Source: Haloferax volcanii DS2 | Lineage (GTDB): Archaea; Halobacteriota; Halobacteria; Halobacteriales; Haloferacaceae | Assembly: GCF_000025685.1 (NCBI RefSeq) | Contig: NC_013967.1 | Span: 1,290,001-1,322,000, forward strand | Length of the DNA: 32,000 bases | Direction: 5' to 3' | Part shown: in pieces, positions 1,746 to 17,655 of the stretch | Layout of the letters: each line of letters opens with the position of its first letter | Numbering within the stretch: position 1 is the first letter of the stretch | The notes under the pieces: generated by a model | What the model was told of the DNA's origin: nothing | Seen by the model: the letters and a program-made list of their open reading frames with translations, nothing else | Database searches by the model: none | Made by a program: the position numbers and the translations under genes

Positions 1746-3083
1746 TCAGTCGCCGGCCTGCGCCGCCTCGCCGTGACCGCCGTGGCCGTCATCACCAACA
1801 GACTCCGAGCGGTGGAGCCAGTAGAGGACGCCGAACAAGCCGGTCGCGAACACGTTCAACACGAGTTTGTAGTCGGCCTCGATACTCACCTCCGCGATTT
1901 GGACGCTCTCGGGGGCCGGGATGAGCCCCGCGCCGAGGAAGACGAAGTGGATGACGACGCCCGTCAGGACCGCCGCCACGAATATCATCCCCGAGAGGAC
2001 GGCCGCGAACGTCGTCCCGTAGTACTCGCGGTAGGCGTCCACGATGGGCGGGACGATGAGGTCGGCGTAGATGTAGCTCAGGACGCTCCCGAACGGCAGG
2101 CCGTTCGAAAAGAGGACCGCCCCGAACGGGACGTTCCCGACCGAGCAGACGAAGGTGGCGACGCCGATGACGGCCCCGAGGACCGCGGTCCAGAAGACGT
2201 ACACCGGCAGCCCGAACGTCGGCCCCGAGAACACCGAGGTCCACACCGCGTCGGGGATGAAGCCGGCGATGAGGCCGGCGAAGACGAAGCCGATGGCGAT
2301 TTCGTCCCAGAGCATCCCCCACTCCTTCCACTGCTTGTCGGCCAGCGCCTTCCACCCCGACAGCGACGTGGCCCGCTCGCGAACCGTCGTGTTGGCCTCT
2401 TCGGGGTCGAAGCTCTCCTTGCACGACTTCGAGCAGAAGTAGAACGTCCGGCCGTCGCGTTCGACGCTGTACTCCGTCTCGTCGGGGTCGACTTCCATCC
2501 CGCAGACGGGGTCGCGGACGGTCTCGCTTCCCTCGTCTTGGACGTTCCGTCGGGCCTGCTCGACCACCTCGTCGGGCACGAGGTAGACGAAGCCGAACGC
2601 CATCAGCCCGATGAGGATGAACCCGCCGAGGATGTCGGCCACGAGGAACTGCCAGCCGAGCAGAATCCAGATGACCGCGCCGATTTCGATGACGAGGTTG
2701 GTCGAGGCGAACATGAACGCCCCGAGGGTCGCCGCCGCGGAGCCGCCTTTCTTAAAGAGGTTCTTCGCGGTGGCGATGGCGCTGTACGAACACGACGAGG
2801 AGACGAAGCCGAACAGCGAGCCGTAGCCGATTTCGCGCGGGCCGTGGCCCTCGAGCAGCTCAGAGACCTCCTCGCCGGAGGTCCACGCCTCCACGCCGCC
2901 GGCGATGGCGAAGCCGACGACGAGCGCCCACCACGTCACCCACGCCATGGCCGCGGTGGTTGAAAGCGCCTCTCGGGCGCTCTCGACGAGGAACGTCCCG
3001 AGCGGCTGTGTGGTCGTGAACACGCCGAGTCCGACCGTCGCGGCTGCGATGACCGCGAGTATCGCGTATTCGCTCCGGTCCAT
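1746..3083 (-). CDS. Multi-pass permease (COG0701/ArsP-like predicted permease) with an inserted cytoplasmic YHS/TRASH metal-binding domain
   Basis: 445-aa ORF with many hydrophobic segments. The central segment DPVCGMEVDPDETEYSVERDGRTFYFCSKSCKESF is a classic YHS/TRASH CxxC...C motif. Confidence 0.8.
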   Translation of the reverse strand: MDRSEYAILAVIAAATVGLGVFTTTQPLGTFLVESAREALSTTAAMAWVTWWALVVGFAIAGGVEAWTSGEEVSELLEGHGPREIGYGSLFGFVSSSCSYSAIATAKNLFKKGGSAAATLGAFMFASTNLVIEIGAVIWILLGWQFLVADILGGFILIGLMAFGFVYLVPDEVVEQARRNVQDEGSETVRDPVCGMEVDPDETEYSVERDGRTFYFCSKSCKESFDPEEANTTVRERATSLSGWKALADKQWKEWGMLWDEIAIGFVFAGLIAGFIPDAVWTSVFSGPTFGLPVYVFWTAVLGAVIGVATFVCSVGNVPFGAVLFSNGLPFGSVLSYIYADLIVPPIVDAYREYYGTTFAAVLSGMIFVAAVLTGVVIHFVFLGAGLIPAPESVQIAEVSIEADYKLVLNVFATGLFGVLYWLHRSESVGDDGHGGHGEAAQAGD

Positions 3084-3348
3084 GTGATTGAGTATGAGGG
3101 AAGCCGTACCTAACTGGGTTGTGCCTAGCAGAATCGGGGTCCCGGCGCGACGCGAGTTCTGATTGTGAACTCCGACGGGGCGGAGAGTTCAGAACGTGAG
3201 CCGTCGCGTTCGGCTCGCGCCGTCGGAGCGACGGAGCGTCACCGGCTCGAAACTCGCTCGGGCGTCAAACGTCCCGTAGGAGGCGTAATACGGCCTGTCT
3301 CTCGGGGTACCCAGAAAGTTAACTTCGAGTAGCACCTCCGTTTCTCCC

Positions 3349-4026
3349 GTGACTATCACTACGGAGATCGTTATTCGTTCGTCTGCGCTGCCGTTCGTCC
3401 GTCTCGCGAAATCGGTTCCGTCGAACCAGATCGAATGCGTACACGGCCTCTGCCACGAGGGGAACTCTCGGGTGTTCATGCTCTACGTCGACCCCGACGC
3501 GGACATCTCCGAACCCGACCTGTTGGCCTTCGACGAAGTCGTCGCCGTCGACGCGCTCGGGCGCGCGAGCGGTAAGGACGTCTTCCAAACCACCATCCAA
3601 CTGGACGACGTCGTCTCGGAAGCGTTCGCCCCCGAGCGGTTCACCGCGACCCAGGTGGAGCGGACGGTCGTCACGCCCGACGGCTGGTACGAAAAGAAGC
3701 TCTTTCAGAACTACAACGCGTTCAACGGGATGCGAACCCGCTGCGAGGAGTACGGTATCTCTATCGAGCTGATTTCTATCACGCAGAACCCCCGGGAACG
3801 CGACGAGTCGTCGCAGTACGGACTGACCGAGCGACAACAGGAGGCGCTGACGCTCGCCATCTCCCGCGGCTACTACGAGAGCCCGCGGCAGGTCTCGACC
3901 GAAGAGCTCGCCGAGGAGATGGGTATCTCGCAACCCTCCATGTCGAGTCTCCTCCGCCGCGGCGAGCGCCAGCTTCTCACCTCCGCGCTCGGCTCGCAGT
4001 CGCAGATCAACACGGTCAGCAGATAG
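3349..4026 (+). CDS. Bat-type (HTH_10) helix-turn-helix transcriptional regulator
   Basis: 225-aa ORF with a GTG start. The C-terminus LTERQQEALTLAISRGYYESPRQVSTEELAEEMGISQPSMSSLLRRGERQLL is the typical haloarchaeal bacterio-opsin-activator-type HTH_10 domain. Confidence 0.75.
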   Translation: MTITTEIVIRSSALPFVRLAKSVPSNQIECVHGLCHEGNSRVFMLYVDPDADISEPDLLAFDEVVAVDALGRASGKDVFQTTIQLDDVVSEAFAPERFTATQVERTVVTPDGWYEKKLFQNYNAFNGMRTRCEEYGISIELISITQNPRERDESSQYGLTERQQEALTLAISRGYYESPRQVSTEELAEEMGISQPSMSSLLRRGERQLLTSALGSQSQINTVSR

Positions 4027-4958: not shown

Positions 4959-4972
4959 ATGGGCGCTACAGG
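4959..4972. repeat. attR core: displaced copy of the tRNA-Arg 3' end
   Basis: Exact 14-nt match to 17486-17499. On the minus strand it is followed by GATTTTTCGG, a T-tract expected of the original tRNA terminator. Confidence 0.6.
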
Positions 4973-5034
4973 GGTTCCGTGAACGGGGTATATAAACCAC
5001 CTCTCGCGTTCGGATATGTCGAACACTCATTGTT

Positions 5035-6081
5035 CTACCACGGGAGGTGATTCCGCCGCTGTTCGGCCCGCTCACGCTCTCCACGGCGGTCATAGTGCTT
5101 ATCGAGCACCAGGTCACTCGCGTCGAGGCGGTCAGACACCACCCGACGCGGCACTTCCTCCCGCCGATAGAGCGTAACCACCCCCTTCCGAACGTCGTGG
5201 GGAGACCGAGAAGACGGACACGTACTGACGTGATTCAGTTCCACCGCCTCGCACGTCTCGATGTCTCGATTGTGCGGGCAACCCTGATTCAGCCAGCACG
5301 GGCGAGTAACCACGTACACGTCCTGCCGAATCGTACTCGCGGAAACCCGTCCGTGAGAAGTCGTCAGTAGCGGCTTCCGACCGAACTCGTCGGTCTTGTC
5401 GACACGCGGGCCGTCGATGTACGCCTGTAACATCGTGCCCACCCGGTCAGACACCGAGTTGAACCGCTCCCCTTTCTCGCCGTTCTTGATGGGCGTGCCC
5501 TGGTCGGGCCGGTGCTTGTACCGGACGACCGGCGTCCGGCCGTCGAGGTCGAGGTCGCGCAGGTCGAGGCCACGAATCGCGCCCATCCGCGCGCCCGTCT
5601 CCCACAGCAACGCGAATTCGACGTGCCGCCGGGAAGCGTAGTGGTAGCGGTGGAGGTATTCGAGGATGTCAGTCGCCCGGTCCGGTTCGAGCGTCGAATC
5701 ACTCACGTCGTCCGTCCCGGACAACTTCGGCAGCGGCACCCGCTCGTAGAAGTCCTCGGGAACCGCGTGGATGTTCGCCGCGAACCGGAGGAACGCCCGA
5801 AGCGTAGTGAGCTGTGATTTGAGCGTGACCGGCGCGATTTCCTCCGGCGTCTCGCCGTCCTCCACGCCGAAGTTCCCTTCGCGTCTCCAGACGCGGAACT
5901 CGTAGAGGTCCCGGCCGTCGAGCTCGGTCAGGTCGTCGACGCCTGATTCTTCGCACCACTCGACGAACGCCCGGAGTCGGTACTTGTGGGACTTCAACGT
6001 CCAGTCCGCGAGTTCGTCCTGGCGGGCCTCCAGGTACATTCGGACCGCGCGAGCAGGTTCGAGCGATTCGAGCTCACTCAT
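5035..6081 (-). CDS. int: Tyrosine recombinase / phage-type integrase
   Basis: 348-aa ORF with an N-terminal SAM-like core-binding region (LKSHKYRLRAFVEWC). The catalytic pattern is Arg in ETGARMGAIRGL, HxxR in SPHDVRKG, and the tyrosine region LDKHYDRR. It lies next to the att repeat. Confidence 0.9.
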   Translation of the reverse strand: MSELESLEPARAVRMYLEARQDELADWTLKSHKYRLRAFVEWCEESGVDDLTELDGRDLYEFRVWRREGNFGVEDGETPEEIAPVTLKSQLTTLRAFLRFAANIHAVPEDFYERVPLPKLSGTDDVSDSTLEPDRATDILEYLHRYHYASRRHVEFALLWETGARMGAIRGLDLRDLDLDGRTPVVRYKHRPDQGTPIKNGEKGERFNSVSDRVGTMLQAYIDGPRVDKTDEFGRKPLLTTSHGRVSASTIRQDVYVVTRPCWLNQGCPHNRDIETCEAVELNHVSTCPSSRSPHDVRKGVVTLYRREEVPRRVVSDRLDASDLVLDKHYDRRGERERAEQRRNHLPW

Positions 6082-6386
6082 CGAATCACCCCCGAATCGG
6101 GTTCACTTCCGGTCCATTCGCTACGCTTACAACCGCGGTGCGATAACTCAATCATGGCTTCCATTGTGAGGCCGCGGTCCGGGTCGAGGACGCCAACCCT
6201 GCCAGAAGCAGCGTCCTCGAAAGGGACCGTCAGCCGGGTAATCCATTCGATACCCCTACTTAAAGTCCTGAGCCATAGCCGCGGAGTGAAAGTGTACGTT
6301 TGAGCGAAAGTAAAACCCATTTCTGTCAGTCTGTCAACAGCCGTCCGTCGTGGGGCTTCAATAGCCCGAGTCGTGTAGGCAAACAT
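6078..6386 (-). CDS. Hypothetical protein upstream of and overlapping the integrase start (ATGA overlap)
   Basis: 102-aa ORF whose TGA (6080-6078) overlaps the integrase ATG (6081-6079). I recognise no motif, so the call rests only on the coupling geometry and ORF length. Confidence 0.3.
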   Translation of the reverse strand: MFAYTTRAIEAPRRTAVDRLTEMGFTFAQTYTFTPRLWLRTLSRGIEWITRLTVPFEDAASGRVGVLDPDRGLTMEAMIELSHRGCKRSEWTGSEPDSGVIR

Positions 6387-6602
6387 GCTTCCGTACCTGT
6401 ATTACGGGAGCCACCGCGGGCCAGCGTGGCAGCGCTGGGTCCGCTTCTGACGCCGACTGAACAACAGTCAGCGTCGCGTGTAGCTTCCGTTGGCCGATAG
6501 AACAGATTGTCTGTACTTAATTCTACCTGCGATATTCGTATCTATAGATAAGGATTAGATTTTTTCAGAGTGGGATTAAATAAGTGAAGTCGCCTTATCG
6601 GG

Positions 6603-6893
6603 ATGATAATCACATTCCGGCGTATTCAGAATTGTATGAGAAGACGGGCAGACTGGTGGGTCTTGGCAGATGACATGATCCTAGAGTATATCTCAGACGA
6701 AGGAACAGGAACACCGAAGGTCATCAGCAAAGAGATCGACAGGAGTCAGGGCTACGTCAACCAGCGGTGCAGTCTGCTCGAGTCGTACGGCCTTCTGACG
6801 AAAGTTGCCCGCGGAGTCTACACGTTATCTGAAGCAGGAAAGCAGTACCTTTCTGAGGATTTGGACGCTTCAACGTTAGAGAAAAGCGAGTAA
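6603..6893 (+). CDS. Winged-helix DNA-binding protein, resembling small haloviral repressor-type (phiH1-repressor-like) wHTH proteins
   Basis: 96-aa ORF in the AT-rich island. The pattern DWWVLADDMILEYI..GTPKVISKEIDRSQGYVNQRCSLLESYGLLTKVARGVYTLSEAGKQYL has typical wHTH architecture (helices followed by a G.Y.L wing). The true start may be the internal Met at 6636. Confidence 0.6.
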   Translation: MIITFRRIQNCMRRRADWWVLADDMILEYISDEGTGTPKVISKEIDRSQGYVNQRCSLLESYGLLTKVARGVYTLSEAGKQYLSEDLDASTLEKSE

Positions 6894-6900
6894 GGTAGCA

Positions 6901-6950
6901 CCCACCACCCTTACCCGTAAGGGGGCGGGTGGATGGGTGGTTTGTTGTTT
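6901..6950 (+). terminator. Putative terminator: stem-loop followed by a T-rich tract
   Basis: CCCACCACCC (6901-6910) can pair with GGGTGGaTGGG (6927-6937, one bulge). An inner hairpin CCCTTA-cccg-TAAGGG lies at 6908-6923. The structure is followed by TTTGTTGTTTG, directly after the wHTH stop codon. Confidence 0.3.
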
Positions 6951-7043
6951 GAATTTGTCAGTCAATTCAATAACTGAATTCTTAGTGAGGTTGAAACAGT
7001 TCTAGACATAACGACTTTTACTACAGAAGCATATCCAACAATA

Positions 7044-8123
7044 ATGAAGAGAGGAATTGACACTTCTGAGGTTGAACAAAAACTACCGATCACCACAGAA
7101 TTATATGGTCGTGCGATTCCATCTGGAATAATATATGATCCAGACTATGAAAATGATGCACTCCCAGAATTCCTGGATGATGAAGACTGGATAACGTATA
7201 TACCAAACCAAGATGGCGAACTGAGTTTTGTCAAAAGTGAACCAATTACTAGTGTGTACTTCGGGAAAGAGCCAGAGAACCCAGAGACAGACATAAATTT
7301 GCAATTTTTTGATGTTTATTATCAACATCTTTCCTTCCCAAATATTATGGGTCTTATGCCGAGTCTACTAGATGACATCAGAAATTTAGCCACGGTATTA
7401 TCAAAAGTCGCATACTACCAGTCAGATCTTTCAGATCTTAATGCAGCGATCCAGCAATTCATTCGCACAGAGTTGGAGTATCTATTTATGGTCTCAAGAA
7501 GCGCATATGACAACCTTCAATTCATCATTGCGAATACGTGGGAAAAGTTACACACTATAGACGGAGATGAAGACTATAGTGCCCAATTGCCAACCAGCTC
7601 TTTTAAAGACGTGGCACTTAGCGGGAATGATCCTGTTCCAGTAGAAGACCTTGAGGACAAATATGGGCTCCCAAAAGCGCTAGCGGAATTCTATTCTGAT
7701 GAAGCCGTGTTCTTTTCAAAGATTCGTGAGTTCAGAGATTCGGTCACCCACCAAGGAGACTCTCCAAAAACTATATTCATTGCGAGTGATGGGTTAGCAG
7801 TTGACACGACCAAAGAACCGTACTGTAATTTTAATGTATGGGAAGATGAGCACATCGTTAATAATGGAATAGCACCGCTTTGGCCATTCATCGCACACGT
7901 AGTTGATCAGACGGTGTCTGCTCTCAAGCGATTCATAGTTGGTCTCTTTGATCAGAGAATCAAGGTACTACCACCGATAGCAAAGGGATATGATGTTTAT
8001 ATTCGCGGAGGGAATGTCGGGAATTTGAACCACTTGGACAGTCTAATGCATGATGACCGATGGGGAAAAGAGTTCATCAAGTCTGTAGAAGAAAGAGTCC
8101 AACATTCACCACCCTCTAACTGA
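7044..8123 (+). CDS. Hypothetical acidic protein with an HEPN-like Rx4H motif (candidate RNase/abortive-infection-type effector)
   Basis: 359-aa ORF, the longest in the AT-rich segment. The protein is still acidic and halophile-like (DPDYENDALPEFLDDEDW). The motif IREFRDSVTHQG resembles the HEPN [LF]R[ND]xxxH signature and is preceded by predicted helical segments (ELEYLFMVSRSAYDNLQFIIANTWEKL). Confidence 0.65.
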   Translation: MKRGIDTSEVEQKLPITTELYGRAIPSGIIYDPDYENDALPEFLDDEDWITYIPNQDGELSFVKSEPITSVYFGKEPENPETDINLQFFDVYYQHLSFPNIMGLMPSLLDDIRNLATVLSKVAYYQSDLSDLNAAIQQFIRTELEYLFMVSRSAYDNLQFIIANTWEKLHTIDGDEDYSAQLPTSSFKDVALSGNDPVPVEDLEDKYGLPKALAEFYSDEAVFFSKIREFRDSVTHQGDSPKTIFIASDGLAVDTTKEPYCNFNVWEDEHIVNNGIAPLWPFIAHVVDQTVSALKRFIVGLFDQRIKVLPPIAKGYDVYIRGGNVGNLNHLDSLMHDDRWGKEFIKSVEERVQHSPPSN

Positions 8124-8225
8124 TTGTTTTTGAAGAATCCTATGTAACTCCGCCCAGTCTTCGAACGGGTCCTGAGACAGGTCATTCGGAAGATGCCACA
8201 CCCAGGGCGCGGCGTCGTCCAAGTC
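8124..8225 (-). pseudogene. Remnant of the 3' end of a second, diverged pleolipovirus NTPase gene
   Basis: The minus-strand translation DLDDAAPWVWHLPNDLSQDPFEDWAELHRILQ aligns without gaps to the C-terminus of the intact NTPase (DPDDAAPWAWNLPSDLFQEQFENWSEFHKILQ). By hand count, 21/32 aa and 72/96 nt are identical (8130-8225 vs 9321-9416). No upstream part of the gene is present. Confidence 0.65.
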
Positions 8226-8229
8226 GGAG

Positions 8230-9027
8230 CTACTCGTCCTCAGCAAACTCCAGATTCGAGTGCTTGTATGTGTAGAGCCGGATGTTCTGATCGTAGCAGT
8301 ACGAGGCATACAGCGCCGGGTGAATCGTTTCCCAGTTCCCCGGACCTTCGTCGAGGCTGGACGGGAACGCAACGCTGACCGCTTCGCCTTCCATCTCCAC
8401 ACCGTACGCGCCGGTGTTCTGTTCCGGTGGCAGCACCTCTACGACGATTGCAACTGACGCATCTTTGTCGCCCTTCTTTTTCACGCGGTCGCCGGGCGAG
8501 AACGGATTCTCCGGCTTCTGGTTCATGTACGCCGTGTTCGGTCCGAGGTCGATGAGTTCGTTCATCGGCCGGGCCGCGAGGTGATCCAGTTTCTCGGGTG
8601 CCTCGCCGGAATACTTCTCTTGCGAGGCCGCTTTCGATTTCAGCGTCTCGGTGCGCTCCCAGCCGAGCAGGATGAGACTGTCTTCGTTGTCCCGATGCCA
8701 GACCATCACGATGATGTCATCGTCCGGGTCGTTGTCGAGGAGGGTTTCGGGAAGGAACGCGGATACGTCGCGAGAGGTCTTCACGTCGACCTCGTAGCCG
8801 AACACTTCGAAGTCGTACGACGAGAAACTTTCAGGGTTGCATCGCCGCATCGCTTCTTCGTTCTTCCACTCCCAGAGTTCGACTGGGAGGTATTCGCGGC
8901 AGAACTGTTCGAACGCGAGTTCTCCAAGGTTCCCGATTCGCTTTACGTCGAGGTTCTTTCGGTCTTGGACCTTCGCCTGGTGGTTGGCGCGTTCGTAGTC
9001 GATTTCGTCCGGGGTATAGCGGTACAC
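8230..9027 (-). CDS. PD-(D/E)xK-like nuclease domain protein with a C-terminal beta-rich (SH3/KOW-like?) extension
   Basis: 265-aa ORF. The N-terminal half has GNLGELAFEQFCREYL ... SYDFEVFGYEVDVKTSRD, a D...(D/E)xK arrangement typical of the restriction-endonuclease fold. The C-terminal half reads FSPGDRVKKKGDKDASVAIVVEVL...GAYGVEMEGEAVSVAF. Confidence 0.6.
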   Translation of the reverse strand: MYRYTPDEIDYERANHQAKVQDRKNLDVKRIGNLGELAFEQFCREYLPVELWEWKNEEAMRRCNPESFSSYDFEVFGYEVDVKTSRDVSAFLPETLLDNDPDDDIIVMVWHRDNEDSLILLGWERTETLKSKAASQEKYSGEAPEKLDHLAARPMNELIDLGPNTAYMNQKPENPFSPGDRVKKKGDKDASVAIVVEVLPPEQNTGAYGVEMEGEAVSVAFPSSLDEGPGNWETIHPALYASYCYDQNIRLYTYKHSNLEFAEDE

Positions 9028-9119
9028 TATCTACGAGAGGACATGGTATGGAATTGAATCTTTCTCGAAGTATTAATATCACAGTCTTTGTTGATATTTA
9101 CAAGTGATTTTAATAGGTA
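9028..9119. promoter_or_regulatory. AT-rich divergent promoter region between the nuclease-like gene (-) and the zinc-finger ORF (+)
   Basis: The 92-nt spacer is very AT-rich (…TATTAATATCACAGTCTTTGTTGATATTTACAAGTGATTTTAATAGGTATTG…) with several TATA-like elements on both strands. Confidence 0.35.
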
Positions 9120-9308
9120 TTGTTGAGAAGGATACATATGGCAGGTGACTACTGGTGTGAGGAGTGCCAGAGATGGATTGATAGTGGTGAAGTTACTGAA
9201 ACCTCTGAAGAAACAAAGCCAGGAGCCCCAATGAGGACGAAGTATGAACACAATCTATGTGGGATGGAGGTTCAAAAAGCACAAACGGAGGACGAAGGCC
9301 CGCGATAA
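9120..9308 (+). CDS. Small zinc-finger/zinc-ribbon protein
   Basis: 62-aa ORF (alternative start Met at 9138). It has CxxC (YWCEECQRW) plus a distal H..C (YEHNLCG). Its stop codon abuts the NTPase stop codon tail-to-tail (9306-9308 / 9309-9311). Confidence 0.4.
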   Translation: MLRRIHMAGDYWCEECQRWIDSGEVTETSEETKPGAPMRTKYEHNLCGMEVQKAQTEDEGPR

Positions 9309-10286
9309 TCAATTACTATTTTGCAATATTTTGTGAAACTCGCTCCAGTTCTCGAACTGCTCCTGAAACAGGTCGCTCGGCAGGTTCCACGCCCACGGCG
9401 CGGCGTCGTCCGGGTCGTACGTCTCCAGCGTCGGTTCGAGGTTCACGAGCGAGCCGCCGAACAGCTCACCATCAGGCGAGTCTGAATCGGCGTCCCAGTC
9501 GCGGTAGAACGTCACTTCGTCCTGCGCCTCTTTGTAGAACGACAGCGTCGAGAGCCGTTTCTGTTCGGGATGCACGTCCTTCCCGGTGTGGCTCACCACG
9601 CCGACGGACTCGACGCCGAGCTTCGAGAACCGCTTAATCGCGGGCGTCCACTGGGACGCCACTTCGCGGCTGAACGTCCGGGCGTCGAAGTGCGTCGAAC
9701 CTTCGTCGATAGTGACGGTCTTCGGCCGCTCGCGGTGGGTCAGCAGTACGTCCATGAGGTCGTACATCGACCGCACCACGATGTCCGCGCCGTCCCACGT
9801 CCCCACGTTCGAGATGACCAGCAGGTCATCACCGAAGTGCGCCCGCGCGAGGTCGCCGTTCAAGAGGAACATCGTGTTCGTCTTCCCCGTGTTCGGGTTC
9901 CCCGCGCCGGTGATGGTCGTGAGACCACCGCCGTTTTCGAGCTCGTCGACGAGCCGAAGCGGCAGTGTCAGCGAACTGGCGTCGAGGTCCTGTTGAGTCA
10001 CGCCGACGAGGTACGAAAGCGCGGTCGCGTGCGACGACTGCACCGCGCGGGTCGCGGCTTGGGTCCGCAGCGACGAATCGACGAGGCGACCGAGCGAGGT
10101 CTCGGCGAACGAGTCGGCCAGCTCGTCGTCCTCGGTGAGGTCGAGCGAGTTCAGGAACGACAGGTTCGCGTGGTCGCCCTTCGAGACCGGCAGTCCCGCG
10201 TGGTCGAGCAGCCGGTGGTCGCCGTCGATGCGCCCGCGTACTTGTTCGTACAACTTCGCCGCCGTCAGCAGCCGTTCGTCGGTCAC
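9309..10286 (-). CDS. Pleolipovirus-type P-loop NTPase (HRPV-1 VP8/ORF8-like)
   Basis: 325-aa ORF with a GTG start. Walker A is GAGNPNTGKT and Walker B-like is KTVTIDEGS. It occupies the last position of the structural operon, as in pleolipoviruses. Confidence 0.85.
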   Translation of the reverse strand: MTDERLLTAAKLYEQVRGRIDGDHRLLDHAGLPVSKGDHANLSFLNSLDLTEDDELADSFAETSLGRLVDSSLRTQAATRAVQSSHATALSYLVGVTQQDLDASSLTLPLRLVDELENGGGLTTITGAGNPNTGKTNTMFLLNGDLARAHFGDDLLVISNVGTWDGADIVVRSMYDLMDVLLTHRERPKTVTIDEGSTHFDARTFSREVASQWTPAIKRFSKLGVESVGVVSHTGKDVHPEQKRLSTLSFYKEAQDEVTFYRDWDADSDSPDGELFGGSLVNLEPTLETYDPDDAAPWAWNLPSDLFQEQFENWSEFHKILQNSN

Positions 10287-10411
10287 AGCCGGTCACCCAC
10301 CTGAATGTCGTGGAGGCAACGCCGGCAGAGGTGTCCCTTCGCCGTGGGGTTTCGGGGAGTCATCGACCATCCGCAGTACATGCACTTCGCGGAAGTGTCC
10401 GAGTCGGTCAC
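10283..10411 (-). CDS. Small zinc-ribbon protein (42 aa), absent from the supplied ORF track
   Basis: My translation is (V/M)TDSDTSAKCMYCGWSMTPRNPTAKGHLCRRCLHDIQVGDRL, with CxxC...CxxC. Its GTG start (10411-10409) overlaps the upstream TGA (10410-10408). Its TGA (10285-10283) overlaps the NTPase GTG start (10286-10284). Confidence 0.45.
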   Translation of the reverse strand: MTDSDTSAKCMYCGWSMTPRNPTAKGHLCRRCLHDIQVGDRL

Positions 10412-10797
10412 GCGGATTCACCTCCGTCGAGGGGATGCGGGCCGAACTCGCTGGTCGAACTGCCGTCGAGGTCGTGAGCGGAGTCGCGCCCATCTCCGTC
10501 ACCGTCGGAGCGGTCAGGCATGAGCTCGTCCGCGTCGTCCGTCCCGTCGTCCCGCGCGTGGTTCCGCACGAGGTACGCCGTCGCCAGTGGCAGGGCCGCC
10601 GATACGAACAGGTGTGTGTTCGTCACCGGGTAGTACGACGCAGACACCGCGCCGTCGTCGAGGAAGCGCATCGGCACGTCGAGCGCCCGCGGCGGTATCA
10701 TCAGGATACCGAACCACAGGCCAGCGACGATGCCAACCGACAGCGAGAGGGCGATGATGTACTGTTCGCGCGTCGAAAGTTCGAGTTCGAGTTTCAT
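10408..10797 (-). CDS. Provirus membrane protein (two predicted TM helices, acidic tail)
   Basis: 129-aa ORF with hydrophobic segments YIIALSLSVGIVAGLWFGILMI and LFVSAALPLATAYLV. Its start forms an ATGA overlap with the upstream gene. Confidence 0.6.
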   Translation of the reverse strand: MKLELELSTREQYIIALSLSVGIVAGLWFGILMIPPRALDVPMRFLDDGAVSASYYPVTNTHLFVSAALPLATAYLVRNHARDDGTDDADELMPDRSDGDGDGRDSAHDLDGSSTSEFGPHPLDGGESA

Positions 10798-11657
10798 TCT
10801 GATTCACCGTTGGCCGCGTGTTGCTTCCGCCGCTGGTCGAGGTCGGCCAGCGGGTCCGGTGCCGGGTCGCCGTCACCTGGTGCCCACTCGGTCGGGTCCT
10901 CGTCGAAGATGGAATCCGAGCCGTCCAGGTCGAAGTCTTCGAGCACGCTATCAATCTCTGCGTGCAGCGCGTCGCCGTCGTCCGGCAGCGCGCCTTTCTC
11001 GAACGTCCGCACGACGTGTTTCACGGTCTTGACCGCCGCCGCCCGGACGATAGCGAAGGAGTTGATTTCGAGCGATTCGCCTTTCCGGGCCTTCGGTTCC
11101 AACTGCTTGCGGTTGTACCGGAGGTATTCGAGCGCCCGCGCCAGCACCGGGTCCGGCAGCGAGCCGACCCACGTCCCGGCGACTTCCCGCGCGTCGAGGT
11201 CGACGCCACGGCCGAACGCGAGGTTCGGCGTCGCCCACCACAGTTGGCCGTCGACGACTGTCCACTCGGACCACCGCGGCGTCGGGCAGGTGTAGACACC
11301 CGCGCCGTCGCGGTCGAGCAGGTCGACGTCGACGAGCCACATCATCTGCGGGCCGCCCATCAGGTCGACGGCCTGCCCGCCGACCCAGCGCCCGGCGATG
11401 ACCGCCGAGAGGCCAGCCGTCAGGCCGATGATTTGGAGCGAGCGAGGTACGCGCACGTCGAAGACGAGCACGAGGCCGACGAGCAACAGCGAGCCAGCGA
11501 CAGCGAGGTGAACGCCGTATCGCATCACCCACACGAACGCTGTCACGAGTCGTCCCGCATCGCGGTCCGGCGCGACCGTCGTCGAGGCCGCGCCCATCTC
11601 TGGTTCGTCGGGAGTTTCCCGCTGAGCCTCAGCTGAGCTTTCGGCGTCGTCGCTCAT
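10794..11657 (-). CDS. Provirus conserved membrane-associated protein (pleolipovirus ORF7 position)
   Basis: 287-aa ORF. Two N-terminal TM segments (LVTAFVWVMRYGVHLAVAGSLLLVGLVLVF, IIGLTAGLSAVIAG) precede a soluble domain. ATGA overlaps occur at both ends. Confidence 0.65.
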   Translation of the reverse strand: MSDDAESSAEAQRETPDEPEMGAASTTVAPDRDAGRLVTAFVWVMRYGVHLAVAGSLLLVGLVLVFDVRVPRSLQIIGLTAGLSAVIAGRWVGGQAVDLMGGPQMMWLVDVDLLDRDGAGVYTCPTPRWSEWTVVDGQLWWATPNLAFGRGVDLDAREVAGTWVGSLPDPVLARALEYLRYNRKQLEPKARKGESLEINSFAIVRAAAVKTVKHVVRTFEKGALPDDGDALHAEIDSVLEDFDLDGSDSIFDEDPTEWAPGDGDPAPDPLADLDQRRKQHAANGESE

Positions 11658-12247
11658 GCGACACGCTCCATGTCACGGTGAAGGCCGAAGCGCCGCCGGA
11701 CGATTATCAGGAGCGCACCGAACGACGTGCCGAGCGCGCCGCCGATAGCCGCGTCTCGCACGTCCGTTCCAGTGAACGGACCGGCGATAAGCGCCGAACC
11801 GCCGTCGTCAAACCGGATTTCGGTATATCGGCCGTTCTCGACGGAGTACGACGTGACGAGAGTCACCCGCGGTTCCGGGGAGTCGATTCGAATCGTCGTC
11901 CGTCCTGGCGGAATCGGTCTGCGAACCAGATTCCCAGCCGCGGCACCGGTCGAGGTCGAGCCGGTCGGCGCGGTCACGGTGACCGTCCGCGGCAGGTCCG
12001 ATTCGAGTACGAGCACGGCGGTCCCGTCGACGTACTCGGCGGAGACGATTCGCACCGCGCGGTCGCCGGCCACGTCGCCGTAGTACGTCGTCTCGTTCGA
12101 CGACTCCGAAGCCGTGGTCGGAGCCGCGGCTGTCGTCGTCTCTGTCGGAGCAGACGCGGTCGCGGTCTCTTGGGCGGCGACTGTGCCAGAGGCAGCGAGC
12201 AGCAGAGCGATACAACTGACGAGTATGATAGTGTGTATTCGAGTCAT
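11654..12247 (-). CDS. Provirus secreted/anchored protein (signal peptide plus C-terminal TM anchor)
   Basis: I prefer the ATG at 12247 (MTRIHTIILVSCIALLLAASGTVAAQE, signal-peptide-like) over the 12391 start given in the track. The protein has a T/A-rich linker and a C-terminal anchor AAIGGALGTSFGALLIIVRRRF. Confidence 0.6.
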   Translation of the reverse strand: MTRIHTIILVSCIALLLAASGTVAAQETATASAPTETTTAAAPTTASESSNETTYYGDVAGDRAVRIVSAEYVDGTAVLVLESDLPRTVTVTAPTGSTSTGAAAGNLVRRPIPPGRTTIRIDSPEPRVTLVTSYSVENGRYTEIRFDDGGSALIAGPFTGTDVRDAAIGGALGTSFGALLIIVRRRFGLHRDMERVA

Positions 12248-12281
12248 ACGGGTAGGGGTAGGGAAGGGAGGTTGGCGAGCG

Positions 12282-12455
12282 TTACAGCAGCGACCCGAAC
12301 CAGTCGCCCGACCAGTCGGGCACGCCGAGCAGGTCGAGCAGCAGGTCCGAACCCATCCCGACGAGGTCGATGCCCGCGAGTTGCAGAGCACCAGCGAGCA
12401 CGACCGCGCCGGCGATGGTCCCGATGGGCAGCTGCTTCAAGAACCAGAGGAGCAT
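12282..12455 (-). CDS. Small provirus membrane protein (57 aa)
   Basis: The ATG at 12455 lies 1 nt after the spike stop codon (12457-12459). The sequence is MLLWFLKQLPIGTIAGAVVLAGALQLAGIDLVGM... The upstream extension in the track overlaps the spike gene and is not protein-like. Confidence 0.5.
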   Translation of the reverse strand: MLLWFLKQLPIGTIAGAVVLAGALQLAGIDLVGMGSDLLLDLLGVPDWSGDWFGSLL

Positions 12456-12456
12456 C

Positions 12457-13970
12457 CTACTCGTTGCCCTCCCGCTGGATGAGTAGCACCGCAGCAGCGC
12501 CAACCAGCAGCGCGATACCGAGCGCCTGCGAGTCGAGGCCACCGGAGCCACCGGAGCCGCCACTTGACTGCTCCCGCTCCTCGATGTCTTGGCGAAGGGA
12601 TTCGAGTTCGTTCGTCATGTTGACGAACTCACTCGTGTTCGTCGTTTTGTACACGTACTGCGTCGTGTTCTGCGACTGCACCGAAGACCCGTCGCGAGCA
12701 GTTATCTCGGTGATGGTGAAGGTACCGTCGAGGTCGACCTTCTCGCCGGTCGCGGTGGCGATGAACACCGGGCCGTCGATGGCCGAGGCGTTGTAGGTCG
12801 TGTTCGCGGACCACGACCCGTTAGGCGCGGAGCGAGCCAGCACGAGACCCTGATAGGTAACGTTCGCCGTCCCCGATTGGTCGGTGACGTTCATCAGCCC
12901 GGACGACTGCATGTCCGGCACATCGAAGCCCATCAGAGCGAGCGCCGCCGTCGAGTCGTACAGCGAGGTCGAGTCGGAACCCGACTGGGTACCGTATTCG
13001 AACATCGCCGTGTTCGCGCTAATCACGTCGGACGAGTTGATGTTTCCAGCCGCGAAGTCGTCGTAGGTCGCATTCACGAAGTTCGACGCCTCCGCTTGGA
13101 GGTCGTCGTTCTTCGTCTCGTAACGCGCCCAGCGGTCAGCGAACGACTGGTGTTCGATGAAGGTCATCGAATCGTAGTTGCTGTTCGGCGCGGCGATTTC
13201 CCAGCCGCGGAAGCCCCAGCCGAAGTTCCCGTCTATCTGCAACCACTCGTGCCGGGCCGGAGTCACGTAGTACGTCTCGTACGTGTTGACGCTGTTGTAA
13301 CCGTCTCCGATAGTGTAGTTGTAGGCGAGCACGTCAGCAGACGAATCGTTGACGAGAGTCACAGACGATGTGTTCAGGCCTTCGTAGGTCTTCGAGACCG
13401 ACCAGCCACTCCCGCTATCGACTTGTGCGAAGTCGTCTTTCGTGACGAATGTCGAGTTGTTAATCGGCTCCGACTCGGAGCGTTCTTCGATACTCACCTC
13501 AGCGGCAGAGACGGTCGCATTCCACCGCGCAATGTCGTTCTTCTGCTTGACAGCGTAGTAGTCAGCAATCGCCCGTCTCGCGTCGATACGGGCCTGCTCT
13601 TTCGTCTTGCCGTCCTCGTACGCTTCAGCGACAGCTACCTGCGCTTTCATCCACGCGACCGACTCGGTGTCGTTCAGGTAGTTGTCCATCGCCGTGTTGT
13701 ACGAGTCGAGCGAGGTCTTCTCAGCCGACGCCGCAGAATACAGTTCGACTTTATCCTGCGTCCCGTCGAGGTCGAGCGTCGAGTCGGTCGGGTTGAACCG
13801 ACACTCGTCGCCGTTCGGGTTAATCAGACTGTTGATGAACGCCGATATCGCGGAATCGGAGACATCGCAGTCTTGGAACCCGAGCGTCGCGGACACTGGA
13901 CCCGAAGCACCTGCTGTCACGAGCAAGACAGCAAACAGGACAGCGAGCCCGCGTCGAGCGAACTCGCGCA

Positions 13971-13971
<1 letters not shown>
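12457..13971 (-). CDS. Pleolipovirus VP4-like spike/fusion glycoprotein
   Basis: The start is taken at ATG 13971, giving the signal peptide MREFARRGLAVLFAVLLVTAGASGPVSA. The large ectodomain has many N-x-S/T sequons. The C-terminus has a heptad-like LESLRQDIEEREQ, a GGS linker and the TM anchor ALGIALLVGAAAVLLI. It sits after the VP3-like gene. Confidence 0.8.
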
Positions 13972-14858
<887 letters not shown>

Positions 14859-14879
14859 TACAGCTAGAACATGTTGATA

Positions 14880-14900
14880 GTAGGTACTAGCCGTACCTAC
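14880..14900. promoter_or_regulatory. Hairpin in the Rep / structural-module intergenic spacer
   Basis: GTAGGTAC-tagcc-GTACCTAC forms an 8-bp perfect stem within the 86-nt spacer between the Rep stop (14945) and the next ATG (14858). It could be a terminator or operator. Confidence 0.25.
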
Positions 14901-14944
14901 CAGCCGTATGAAAGTGGAATCACCAGGCAGGGTAGGTTCCTACG

Positions 14945-16849
14945 TCATCCCCACACGTCAGCGACCGGTGGGGGTTTCTCGCCGCCGACATCGGGGTATT
15001 CCGGCTGTCCTCCCGAAGCAACGTAATCTTCGACGTGTTCGAGATTCGTAGCCGTCGCGTCGGCTGTCGGCATGTCCCAGTAGGCGTAGCAGCCCAGGTA
15101 GTCGATGTGGCAGTAGAAGTCGGCACTCTCTGGGAGCGTCGATTCTACGCCTGGAGTCACAACGTCATCGAGGGCGAGTTCTTCGACCGTTGCGCCATCG
15201 CACGCGAGCTGGAGAGAGTCGATAGAGAGCTCTCGAACGGCGTGCCGAACGTCCGGGTCTTGCAGGTGTTCGGGTCTCTCTATCGCTTTCTCGATATCTC
15301 GCGAGATGGACCAGAATCGCCTGCCAGTCGCCCAGTAGAGGCCGAGTTTCCACGTCGCCGCCTTGTCAGCGTACGAATCCGACTCTTTCGCGTCCTCGAA
15401 CGACTCGGAGGCTTCGAGCAGGGAGCCGAAGGTGGCCGAGAGGTACTTTCCGAGGTACGCGCCAGCCGTCCGGCTTTGCATCTGTTCGTCGCCGTCCTCG
15501 CCGCTCTCGTCGTCGTAGAACTCGATGAGGTCGTGAGACCTCGCGTTCTTCGCTATCCACTCGTCGCTGTGGTCGTGGTCGCCGTAGCGGTACCAGTCCA
15601 CAAATCCTTTCGAGACCGGAACTTCGAACTGGTCGCCGTCGTCGTCGACGAGCGTTTTCGTTCCGAAGTTCCCCACTTCGTCGAGGTCCTCCCGAAACAC
15701 GAGTGGATAGAGATCGACGATTTGACCCTGGCCGTAGTCCTTCCACTTCCGTTCCAGCTCCGCCTTGTCTATCAGGAACGGCATCCCGTCACTCTCGCGG
15801 GTCGGAACGTCGAACATCAGGACGTGCAGGTGCGCGTAGCCCTTCTCGGTGAACTCCAGAGCTTTCAGGTACGGCGGCCGGTAGCGAGGTCGCCCGGTCA
15901 CTTTGCCGTCGAGCGCCGGTGACCAACTGGGAACGCCGTCCCTCCTGGTGTCGTCTTTCGTCGACGGGTCCGAGTCGAAGTACGAGAGGAGCCGGTTGAA
16001 GTTCGGGTTTATCGACGAGATGCCGTCGTACAGCGAGCGCGGGTCGGGTCGAGTCGGGTCGTCGTACGTGCCGGGGTCCGTCGTCAGCGTCATCAAGACG
16101 GCGTTGTCGTACTTCTCGTACGCGTGTTCGAGCGCGCTGTTGTAGCGCGCCCACGTCTTTCGGAGCCGTCCCTGGGAGTTGAAGCGGGTATTGTACTGTT
16201 TCGTCATCCGGCGGGTGGTGTCGCCGCCGCGTCGCCCGCAGAAGTGGACGTCGAACAGCAGTTGGTAGTTCTCGATGCGCTTCAGGTACCGATGTAAAGA
16301 GTCTTCCAGCAGGTCCCGACCCCAGTCATCGACCTTATTCGCGGTTCTCAGGTAGTTCTCGCAGAAATGCCGGTCATACAGCAAGTCGTCGCGTTCCCTG
16401 GTTGTTTGAGTAATGCCTTCTGATATCAAGTCAAGTAGACGAATTGTCGGGGTGACCATCGTCATGCCGTCAGACTGGCGTTTTTCGATGAGCTGGGGGT
16501 CGTGCCCGTCGAGGTCGTTCAGGAACCGGTAGACGAACTGGTAGTCCGGGTCGCTCCCGTCGAACCGCTCGCACTGCCCGATGTACTGACCCTTGACGCA
16601 CTCGGAGACGAGCGTCGGCAGGTAAATCCCCTCTGGCGAGGTCGAGATGCGCTTTACCAGCCGTACGCGGTCCCGGTCGCGCCCGCGAAGTTCGAGGTCG
16701 TCGTCCGGGTCTGCCGGGTCGTACCCGTAGGCCAGCAGGCCGAGGTCGCCCAGGTAGTCCACGAGGTAGGTATCTTTACATCGGTCTGGGCGGAGCCGTG
16801 AGCCCCATACGTCAGCGATTTCGGACGATGAGCGTTTTCCGACGCTCAT
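14945..16849 (-). CDS. rep: HUH-superfamily rolling-circle replication initiation protein (Rep)
   Basis: 634-aa ORF with the three RCR motifs in the correct order. Motif I is VLMTLTT (about aa 251-257), motif II is YAHLHVLMF (HUH, about aa 339-346) and motif III is AGAYLGKYLS (YxxKY, about aa 465-470). Confidence 0.8.
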   Translation of the reverse strand: MSVGKRSSSEIADVWGSRLRPDRCKDTYLVDYLGDLGLLAYGYDPADPDDDLELRGRDRDRVRLVKRISTSPEGIYLPTLVSECVKGQYIGQCERFDGSDPDYQFVYRFLNDLDGHDPQLIEKRQSDGMTMVTPTIRLLDLISEGITQTTRERDDLLYDRHFCENYLRTANKVDDWGRDLLEDSLHRYLKRIENYQLLFDVHFCGRRGGDTTRRMTKQYNTRFNSQGRLRKTWARYNSALEHAYEKYDNAVLMTLTTDPGTYDDPTRPDPRSLYDGISSINPNFNRLLSYFDSDPSTKDDTRRDGVPSWSPALDGKVTGRPRYRPPYLKALEFTEKGYAHLHVLMFDVPTRESDGMPFLIDKAELERKWKDYGQGQIVDLYPLVFREDLDEVGNFGTKTLVDDDGDQFEVPVSKGFVDWYRYGDHDHSDEWIAKNARSHDLIEFYDDESGEDGDEQMQSRTAGAYLGKYLSATFGSLLEASESFEDAKESDSYADKAATWKLGLYWATGRRFWSISRDIEKAIERPEHLQDPDVRHAVRELSIDSLQLACDGATVEELALDDVVTPGVESTLPESADFYCHIDYLGCYAYWDMPTADATATNLEHVEDYVASGGQPEYPDVGGEKPPPVADVWG

Positions 16850-16915
16850 TCGTCTCTCCGAGAGACCGCACGCGCAGCTGGTGAGTCGTGAGCGCCGGGG
16901 GCGCGAGTGCCCGCG

Positions 16916-17311
16916 TTACTCACGGGAACCCCCGTCTGTGCGGATGAAATCGCTCAGACGGCACTGGGCCTTACCGCCACTCGTTTTCGGCCGACGGCCG
17001 TCGGCCTCATGCGGACCGGCTTCCGGGTCAGGGGCAAGCCCCTGCTTCCGGCCGCTCCGGGCGGACTGGGACCCGCCCTCCGCTGTTCCGGTCCTTGCGG
17101 TGGTTTCTGCGGCCAGTTGGTGTGCCCACAGGAGCGAGGTGAGTCGGTGGTCCCGAATCTCGTCCTCGATGGCGGGGATGCGCGCGCAGTCCTTGCACTC
17201 GCGCATCTTCGCGGCGCGCTCCGCGTGGTCGACGAGACACCACGCTTTGCAGCTGCCGCAGGCGTAGCGGACGTACCGCCATAGATGTCTCTCGCGACGA
17301 ACGTGAGACAT
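16916..17311 (-). CDS. Putative zinc-finger protein, first ORF of the provirus leftward transcription unit
   Basis: 131-aa ORF whose N-terminal 60 aa contain CGSC...C...CKDC (YACGSCKAWCLVDHAERAAKMRECKDCARIP). The C-terminal half is low-complexity and overlaps GC-rich palindromes, so the true extent is uncertain. Confidence 0.4.
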   Translation of the reverse strand: MSHVRRERHLWRYVRYACGSCKAWCLVDHAERAAKMRECKDCARIPAIEDEIRDHRLTSLLWAHQLAAETTARTGTAEGGSQSARSGRKQGLAPDPEAGPHEADGRRPKTSGGKAQCRLSDFIRTDGGSRE

Positions 17312-17485
17312 CTACCATGCACCCCCCTTGGCTTCTAATTTCGCCCGACAGCGGCGACCCGTTGCATGAAAGCTGAGGGAATAATTTTCTCGGTGATTTT
17401 GAGAAAGCGCCGATTTGGCCGATATCGACGGCGTAGAGCCATCTCTCGGCTTTTTAATTCTGGCCCCGAAGGACCTAAATTTTGG

Positions 17486-17499
17486 ATGGGCGCTACAGG
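17486..17499. repeat. attL core overlapping the 3' end of tRNA-Arg
   Basis: Exact copy of ATGGGCGCTACAGG (4959-4972). It covers the 3' acceptor strand and the start of the T-arm of the tRNA on the minus strand. Confidence 0.6.
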
Positions 17500-17561
17500 A
17501 TTTGAACCCGTGGCAACTTGGTCCGAAGCCAAGCACTCTGTCCAGACTGAGCTAAGCGCCC
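17487..17561 (-). tRNA. tRNA-Arg (anticodon UCG)
   Basis: The reverse complement folds as a cloverleaf: GGGCGCU-UA-GCUC-AGUCUGGAC-AGAGU-G-CUUGG-CUUCGGA-CCAAG-UUGCC-ACGGG-UUCAAAU-CCUGU-AGCGCCC-A. It has a 7-bp acceptor stem, a GGUUCAAAU-type T-loop and anticodon loop CU-UCG-GA. Confidence 0.9.
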
Positions 17562-17632: not shown

Positions 17633-17655
17633 GCGGTCTCCGAACAGTACGGGGT

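Follow-up and report, generated by a model that had tools for sequence, protein, structure and literature searches.

A candidate HEPN-type RNase gene in a variable cargo slot of the Haloferax volcanii provirus Halfvol3

The stretch of Haloferax volcanii DS2 DNA analysed here, hereafter called the window, is 32,000 nucleotides long (RefSeq assembly GCF_000025685.1, contig NC_013967.1, positions 1,290,001 to 1,322,000 of the forward strand) and contains the provirus Halfvol3, in which a gene of the plus strand at 7044–8123, with an ATG start and encoding 359 amino acids (aa), is the subject of this study (the target gene). All together, the data are best explained by a stand-alone HEPN-like RNase, carried as cargo by the provirus and employed in virus–virus or virus–host conflict, a reading to which we assign a probability of about 0.6. 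As to its parts, the core of the protein is quite probably a divergent HEPN domain, and we lean, with somewhat less assurance, towards RNase activity of the protein as a whole. From the gene order between named landmarks (HVO_1422 integrase, HVO_1423 winged helix-turn-helix (wHTH) protein, HVO_1426 VP8-like ATPase, HVO_1431 spike and HVO_1434 Rep; PMC12091111) we infer that the target gene is HVO_1424 and that a 265-aa open reading frame (ORF) is HVO_1425. In a literature search HVO_1424 turned up in a single paper, which lists it as a 'conserved hypothetical protein' identified by mass spectrometry with 16 spectral counts in a caesium chloride (CsCl) fraction (PMC12091111).

The initial annotation had drawn attention, in this ORF, to the segment FSKIREFRDSVTHQGD as a HEPN-type motif, and both the 359-aa frame with its ATG start and the segment, with the motif letters FRDSVTH, are present in the DNA. 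Specifically, the putative catalytic motif R231-D232-S-V-T-H236, delimited by translation and conservation, maps to 7734–7751 on the plus strand (R231 codon at 7734–7736, H236 codon at 7749–7751) and is the single R-x4-H of the whole protein. When the protein was shuffled, a bare R-x4-H arose in 23.6% of the shuffles and the stricter form [LF]R[ND]xxxH in 0.56%; therefore, the motif in one sequence is weak evidence and its significance comes from its conservation. All conservation counts refer to an alignment of 136 representatives that are 23–44% identical to the target. In this alignment H236 is the sole invariant column (136/136), R231 is retained in 135 of the 136 sequences, position 232 is D or N in 124 (D 103, N 21) and G238 is conserved in 116. 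Among the close relatives of the haloarchaeal clade K226, R228, R231, D232, H236 and G238 are all invariant. The conservation of R and H that had been anticipated among homologues is thus clearly evident, no other positions of the alignment being as conserved, and it is accompanied by conserved positions in helix 2 (E143 127/136, E145 134/136, R152 129/136, S153 125/136, D156 133/136) and in helix 1 (D111 128/136, K121 131/136).

The protein had also been described as an orphan, a view that does not survive profile searches. With a word-indexed search no more than 10 close relatives were recovered; none of these is annotated, and they include a 'hypothetical protein' of Haloferax mediterranei. 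A HMMER profile search of 1.84 billion representatives, by comparison, collected 575 clusters at E<=1e-3, 260 of them reaching E<=1e-30, from Bacteria and haloarchaea and all unannotated, the members being mostly 320–350 aa long and spanning query positions about 40–340. A second search, carried out with bacterial-type members, added proteins of Salinicola, Leptospira yasudae, Sorangium and Rhizobiaceae, all 'hypothetical' and none with a Pfam domain, and relatives are also encoded on Bradyrhizobium and Rhizobium plasmids. A profile scan of genome contigs with the haloarchaeal-clade alignment gave no relatives, and a metagenome scan only seven loci, mostly short. By direct family assignment the target protein has no Pfam, NCBIfam, PADLOC or PHROG match. 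What emerges is a family of at least 575 clusters without a name, without a Pfam, NCBIfam or PADLOC model and without a structural neighbour, yet with near-invariant, catalytic-looking residues. It offers a concrete candidate for a new family of HEPN-type RNases.

A public gene call for the same protein (P0001) is 258 aa long and begins at M102, leaving out residues 1–101 (window 7044–7346). Judged by conservation, the 359-aa start at 7044 appears to be the correct one and P0001 too short, because residues 1–101 are conserved in the haloarchaeal clade and, at R23, W49, Y72 and D83, family-wide; W49, Y72 (134/136) and D83 (131/136) are shared with non-halophilic bacteria as well. The N-terminal region proper, residues 1–85 (7044–7298, plus strand), was delimited by this conservation, by the structural model and by its acidity. 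It is beta-rich, with strands at residues 49–54, 60–64 and 68–74 of the full-length model, and acidic, with 22 D+E against 6 K+R within residues 1–110 and a maximum of 27% D+E in residues 41–85. The annotation of a separate acidic N-terminal domain was right about the acidity and wrong about the separateness, in that the region is an integral part of the protein conserved throughout the family; its acidity looks like ordinary halophile adaptation. It may serve as a sensor or regulatory part. The gene itself lies in the lowest-GC (guanine plus cytosine) part of the window and is, as had been noted, the most AT-rich gene there, at 41.7% GC overall and 38.6% at third codon positions (GC3), compared to 58–68% GC and 77–86% GC3 for the neighbouring genes.

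Two AlphaFold2 (AF2) models were computed, one of the whole protein from 10 sequences (predicted local distance difference test score, pLDDT, 71.8; predicted template modelling score, pTM, 0.77) and one of the core, residues 86–310, from 78 diverse sequences (pLDDT 92.9, pTM 0.90). Both show helices at residues 105–127, 135–166 and 211–237, followed by a beta-hairpin at 244–254 and a helix at 280–302, so that not only the C-terminal half, as initially annotated, but the C-terminal two thirds of the protein are mostly helical, and the helical bundle expected of a HEPN protein appears as four long helices in HEPN order. On the plus strand of the window, helices 1 and 2 of the core model map to 7356–7541 and carry D111, N114 and K121 (helix 1) and E143, E145, R152, S153 and D156 (helix 2). 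In both models they are followed by a 44-residue insert (7542–7673) and by helix 3 (7674–7754) with the motif at its end. Helix 4, taken from the core model, maps to 7881–7949, after a connection of 42 residues that includes the beta-hairpin. R231 and H236 sit in the last turns of helix 3, which stops one residue past H236 in the two models, and the loop 237–242 that follows is of low confidence in the full-length model.

HEPN domains have been described as four core helices with a variable insert between helices 2 and 3, an Rx4-6H motif that closes helix 3 and extends into the H3–H4 loop, the R being followed by a polar residue (N, D or H), and an acidic residue conserved in helix 2, typically within Ex3[KR] (Anantharaman et al. 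2013, PMC3710099). In the target family the spacing is 4, with R and H at the frequencies given above, the residue after R is a polar D or N in 124 of 136 sequences, and the motif stands at the end of helix 3, at the start of the H3–H4 loop, in the two AF2 models; the helix order and the insert between helices 2 and 3 of the core model agree with the same description. Profile comparisons point in the same direction. When the 136 members were compared with Pfam at E<=1, 40 families were touched, five of them HEPN families: LA2681 (three matches), MAE_28990 (two, best 2.2e-4), RiboL-PSP (two, best 2.6e-4), Cthe2314 (two) and Apea (one). Pfam holds roughly 45 HEPN families among its 24,736, and on that assumption finding five among 40 has a binomial probability of about 1e-8. 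With seven family and sub-family consensus sequences as queries, HEPN_Cthe2314 was the top match for four (best E 0.0022) and RiboL-PSP for two more. These HEPN alignments span 70–120 residues and take in helix 2, the insert, helix 3 and the motif. Against PADLOC-DB 2.0 no model matched the target, and across the 136 members only scattered matches were found, at E>=7e-4, with CARF_HEPN (three), Cas13-ApeA, Csx1 and RTasHEPN among them. The commonest weak Pfam match of all, tRNA-synt_2 (6 of 136, best E 0.026–0.047), was rejected as a helical-segment artefact because of its poor E-values, the 60-residue stretch it covers and its lack of biological coherence. When the protein alone and two family profiles were searched against PDB sequences, only de novo coiled-coil designs came back, and these were likewise discarded as low-complexity helical noise. 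In conclusion, HEPN membership is likely but unproven.

The element around the target gene is the provirus Halfvol3, a context that the initial annotation lacked and that proved the most informative part of the analysis, the gene being Halfvol3 cargo. Published descriptions give Halfvol3 as 12,527 bp long, associated with tRNA-Arg-TCG, with 14-nt att sites, genes HVO_1422–HVO_1434 and more than 90% nucleotide identity to Halfgib1 (PMC7911831, PMC12091111). In the window the 14-nt direct repeat ATGGGCGCTACAGG occurs at 4960–4973 (attL, where the Halfgib1 attP aligns) and again at 17486–17499 (attR), at the 3' end of tRNA-Arg(TCG) (17487–17561, minus strand), and four published H. volcanii primers match exactly, at 5001–5021, 16856–16874, 16578–16597 and 17642–17661. 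A blastn map shows Halfvol3 to be colinear with Halfgib1 over 4960–17486 save a few segments. The tyrosine integrase HVO_1422 (5035–6081, minus strand) is supported by Pfam, phrog_1 and the Halfgib1 int gene, and a 634-aa ORF is 97% identical to the Rep of the pleolipovirus Haloferax virus Halfgib1. Directly upstream of the target stands the 96-aa, phiH-repressor-like winged-helix regulator HVO_1423 (6603–6893, plus strand; phrog_2440 at 3.7e-29, with weak Pfam wHTH matches), a backbone gene of this virus group. All neighbours to the right of the target match PHROG families strongly, as pleolipovirus genes. The target itself lies outside the pleolipovirus core, being absent from PHROGs, from 50,697 virus records searched with tblastn and from five related Haloferax proviruses.

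The similarity to Halfgib1 stops at 6944 and restarts at 8142, thereby defining on the blastn map a cassette of about 1.2 kb (6945–8141) with a GC content of 40.6%, in which the target is the only gene. On the left it is bounded by a GC-rich hairpin of 44 nt with a T-rich tract behind it (6897–6940, plus strand; folding free energy −30.4 kcal/mol, z −2.97), located directly after the wHTH stop codon. The hairpin is near-invariant in Halfvol3, Halfgib1 and H. mediterranei, and a search with it as a probe revealed it in another five Haloferax genomes. Cargo exchange has its left breakpoint here, and the hairpin probably also serves the wHTH gene as a terminator. On the right the cassette is bounded by 85 nt left over from the 3' coding end of the VP8-like NTPase gene (8142–8226, minus strand), a remnant recognised as a repeat and found in Halfgib1 and H. 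mediterranei too.

In Halfgib1 the same slot holds HfxHg1_085 (12552–14219 of our Halfgib1 locus, L017), annotated as a tetratricopeptide repeat (TPR) protein, in which we detected a SIR2_2 domain (51.6 bits, Pfam cut-off 24.5) in addition to the TPRs. A sirtuin representative in Halfgib1 has been reported as one of few outside caudoviruses (PMC9503650). In the loci reached with the hairpin probe (L027–L031), the slot is empty in H. chudinovii and holds a 420-aa MCM-type AAA+ gene in H. profundi (where a paralogue lies one gene further on), a 158-aa gene in H. denitrificans, a 168-aa gene in H. massiliensis and a SIR2-TPR gene in H. gibbonsii. In these five proviruses the occupants have 38–46% GC and the proviruses 55–66%. 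The slot is a hypervariable accessory hotspot, two of whose occupants, not all, look like conflict effectors. The SIR2-TPR architecture is typical of NAD-depleting antiviral effectors.

In H. mediterranei (L001, CP007551.1) a homologue 58% identical to the target was found at a distance of 1.5 kb from tRNA-Arg(TCG), with its orientation preserved. The remnant there (L001 8900–12700) keeps the wHTH gene (35% identity), the target homologue, the hairpin, the NTPase-tail remnant and an AT-rich 254-aa gene, and contains no integrase, Rep, structural gene or second att copy. This locus is a decayed Halfvol3-like provirus that kept, of the viral genes, only the wHTH gene and the target homologue, a retention better explained by a benefit to the cell, or by addiction, than by a part played in virion production. 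Elsewhere in the family, at seven further loci, the company varies. A Salinicola relative neighbours a serine recombinase, MvaT and an HNH protein; a Leptospira relative lies among BrnT/CopG, RelE and PemK modules; a relative on a metagenome contig has HicA, MazE, the YhcG nuclease and a T5orf172-ResIII helicase nearby; and at the other loci nothing recognisable was found in the neighbourhood. No conserved partner gene appeared, the upstream and downstream convergent ORFs of eight loci being mutually non-homologous save the wHTH gene of H. volcanii and H. mediterranei, and no MNT or NTP_transf gene adjoins the target or any homologue locus examined. In seven of seven loci (L001, L007, L009–L012, L015) the family gene is below the surrounding GC, by 2 to 18 percentage points. 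Such low GC is typical of mobile conflict genes, and as evidence it is anecdotal.

Among known systems, the closest to the family are the HEPN families of the abortive-infection (Abi)-type and miscellaneous groups (HEPN_Cthe2314 PF18730, HEPN_RiboL-PSP PF18735, HEPN_MAE_28990 PF18737, HEPN_LA2681 PF18733 and HEPN_Apea PF18739; PMC3710099). Shared with these are an R[DN]xxxH ending helix 3, acidic residues in helix 2 (though not in the usual spacing), the H2–H3 insert, a long-helix domain of about 200 residues and neighbourhoods of mobile, toxin–antitoxin (TA) and defence genes, and they are the only families to recur in the sub-threshold matches. The target differs in scoring below every curated cut-off, in its extra beta-rich N-terminal and C-terminal parts and its long H3–H4 connection with a beta-hairpin, and in lacking the partners recorded for HEPN families (TPR, ParB/methylase, restriction–modification); no solved or predicted structure is significantly similar to it. 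The best structural match, though non-significant, is to the HepT toxins of the HEPN–MNT systems (7bxo, 7ae6, 7ae9), which are Rx4H RNases and growth-arresting toxins. However, HepT is about 130 aa long, MNT-paired and regulated by AMPylation, whereas the target is about 2.7 times larger, has additional domains and has no neighbouring MNT. With regard to genomic setting, the target can be likened to the 'moron' genes for superinfection exclusion or abortive infection in variable slots of prophages, specifically through HfxHg1_085 of Halfgib1, which occupies the identical slot on the same strand with a similarly low GC (38% vs 42%). Effector domains of both the SIR2 and the HEPN kind are common in antiviral systems, whereas the two proteins, a predicted NADase and a predicted RNase, have unrelated chemistry and no sequence similarity.

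On these grounds we propose that the target acts as a stand-alone effector of about 330–360 aa that would cut RNA in a metal-independent manner by means of a divergent HEPN core. H236, as the catalytic histidine, would act as general base, the transition state would be stabilised by R231 together with D232, and the polar stripe along helix 2 (E145, R152, D156) would complete the active site, which, by analogy with other HEPN enzymes, is probably formed across a dimer. The beta-rich N-terminal and the C-terminal parts may hold the enzyme inactive until a trigger arrives. As accessory cargo with its own upstream region, placed downstream of a phiH-type repressor gene in an active alphapleolipovirus-like provirus, the triggered enzyme would cut RNA of a superinfecting virus or of the host and so limit a competitor, in the manner of superinfection exclusion or of abortive infection. 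A published phenotype bears on this proposal. Deletion of Halfvol3 leads to a more acute infection by HFPV-1, with an about 10 times higher virus:host ratio (PMC9436352), and the positions of the primers show that the deletion removed about 5022–16855, the target included. That HVO_1424 is the Halfvol3 determinant restraining this chronic virus in H. volcanii is nonetheless doubtful, and we put it forward tentatively.

Several observations weigh against the proposal. No curated HEPN model scores above its cut-off (the best, HEPN_Cthe2314, at 18.5 bits vs 27.1), and the target has no PADLOC, NCBIfam or PHROG assignment. Three Foldseek searches (full-length model against PDB, core against PDB, core against BFVD) gave no match at E<0.2; the HepT toxins came out best at a probability of 0.30–0.33 and TMt 0.51–0.53, with a root-mean-square deviation (rmsd) of 5.6–7, slightly above generic four-helix bundles at TMt 0.40–0.43. 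Foldseek matches to dUTPase, translin, LXR, the primase PriL and BAR domains were rejected (TM-score 0.1–0.2, rmsd >15 A). The acidic residues of helix 2 (E143, E145, D156), together with R152, are spaced E-x6-R and R-x3-D and not Ex3[KR], and an H3–H4 connection of 42 residues with a beta-hairpin is atypical for HEPN. As regards the viral setting, a profile scan of viral contigs (IMG/VR) found no relative for the haloarchaeal clade, and tblastn of the target against 50,697 deposited phage and archaeal-virus genomes, Halfgib1 and the HRPVs included, gave no match. The H. profundi slot with its MCM-type AAA+ gene led us to soften a strictly defence-related reading of the slot. On HFPV-1 infection only HVO_1422 and HVO_1423 changed in expression, and the authors of that study favour the repressor HVO_1423 as the cause (PMC9436352). 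Finally, it is the order of the genes, and no sequence record, that identifies the target as HVO_1424.

The missing significant HEPN match, in structure or in curated profiles, leaves room for a core that is not homologous to HEPN at all, such as a metal-dependent phosphohydrolase or nuclease (an all-alpha NTP-pyrophosphatase, dUTPase or MazG-like enzyme) or a new fold, with an R-x4-H that is convergent and a site built from D83, D111, K121, E143, E145, R152, D156, R228, R231 and H236. The conserved acidic residues do exceed what a minimal HEPN site needs, and dimeric all-alpha dUTPases were among the noise-level matches of the first Foldseek run. Those dUTPase matches, however, had TM-scores of 0.12–0.19 and were gone with the better model, while HEPN is the one profile signal to recur, in five Pfam families as well as several PADLOC models and in alignments that extend well beyond the motif, and the place of the motif at the end of helix 3, the D/N after R and the H2–H3 insert all fit HEPN. 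We therefore regard this alternative as unlikely. The HEPN reading of the initial annotation is partly supported: motif conservation and helix order agree with it, and no significant curated-profile or Foldseek match was obtained.

If the protein is a HEPN-like RNase, it could still serve the virus and not host defence, by tuning host or viral transcripts for the chronic, non-lytic Halfvol3 infection or by countering host defences, and the protection from HFPV-1 would then come from HVO_1423. Halfvol3 is active and chronically released, and HVO_1424 was detected in the CsCl fraction as mentioned above (PMC12091111); it was HVO_1423, not HVO_1424, that was down-regulated on HFPV-1 infection, and phiH-type repressors give immunity (PMC9436352); and deletion of the proviruses alters CRISPR RNA levels (PMC12091111). 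Yet the CsCl fraction also held restriction enzymes and Avs2, so that detection shows expression and not virion membership. The sister virus Halfgib1 and four other related proviruses do without the gene, so the viral life cycle does not require it. In the H. mediterranei remnant it persists after the loss of all viral functions, and most family members lie on bacterial chromosomes or plasmids beside TA or defence genes. On balance a purely viral role seems improbable to us. Least convincing is a two-gene addiction module of TA type, in which the target would be the toxin and the upstream wHTH protein would repress or neutralise it. In both H. volcanii and H. mediterranei the two genes are neighbours on one strand, and the pair outlasted provirus decay, the wHTH protein gives weak AbiEi and CasR-type wHTH matches, and HEPN toxins are common in TA systems (PMC3710099). 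But the wHTH gene and its downstream hairpin also occur where the slot is empty or filled by other genes, in Halfgib1 and another five proviruses; the terminator-like hairpin stands between the two genes; and upstream of other family members, haloarchaeal (L007, L018) and bacterial alike, the genes are unrelated. Such a module is very unlikely.

Should HVO_1424 prove to be the Halfvol3 determinant that restrains HFPV-1, a reading that we hold to be doubtful, it would be the first stand-alone HEPN-like RNase of an archaeal virus to act in virus–virus exclusion. It would also be the tractable founder of a new antiviral or toxin family, with several hundred sequence clusters across the two prokaryotic domains, Bacteria and Archaea, and a structurally distinct fold derived from HEPN, and the post-repressor slot of pleolipoviruses would be a recombination hotspot that shuffles effectors (HEPN-like, SIR2-TPR and others) between viruses. 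With its conserved flanks in alphapleolipovirus-like proviruses, the slot offers a handle on the exchange of accessory and defence genes among archaeal viruses. In addition, the target sits in a rare archaeal virus–host system with genetics, a challenge virus (HFPV-1) and a deletion phenotype, and represents a second testable candidate beside the repressor.

Some further features of the provirus and of related loci were recorded. The NTPase-tail remnant at the right edge of the slot lies out of frame just past the stop of the 265-aa ORF and has copies at Halfgib1 12406–12497 and H. mediterranei L001 11106–11255; it forms part of a direct repeat of about 99 nt and 76% identity (8128–8226 vs 9319–9417). 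We rejected the idea that the repeat copy at 8128–8226 is an insertion scar of the cassette, the remnant being present in Halfgib1 and H. mediterranei as well. The 265-aa protein covers only positions 1–265 of the 335-position phrog_18072 profile, and its gene may have been shortened or frameshifted in comparison with related genes. On a metagenomic haloarchaeal contig (L007) an unannotated 264-aa gene, the second downstream of the target homologue (2871–3665, minus strand), carries an R-x4-H near its C-terminus (IRETCAHPEE) and could encode another HEPN-like protein.

Halfvol3 and Halfgib1 also differ at two other places. The centre of the spike (VP4-like) gene, 12515–13915, has no blastn similarity to Halfgib1, both flanks being 92–94% identical; this receptor-binding region has diverged, as variation in host range would lead one to expect. 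At a second variable site (9067–9332 in the window, 8205–11557 in Halfgib1, L017) Halfgib1 has three extra genes between the NTPase and 265-aa genes, and Halfvol3 about 270 nt. Among the extra genes are one for a Dcm cytosine methyltransferase and one for a protein of 373 aa that gives a faint match to SacI endonuclease, a pair that possibly constitutes a restriction–modification module.

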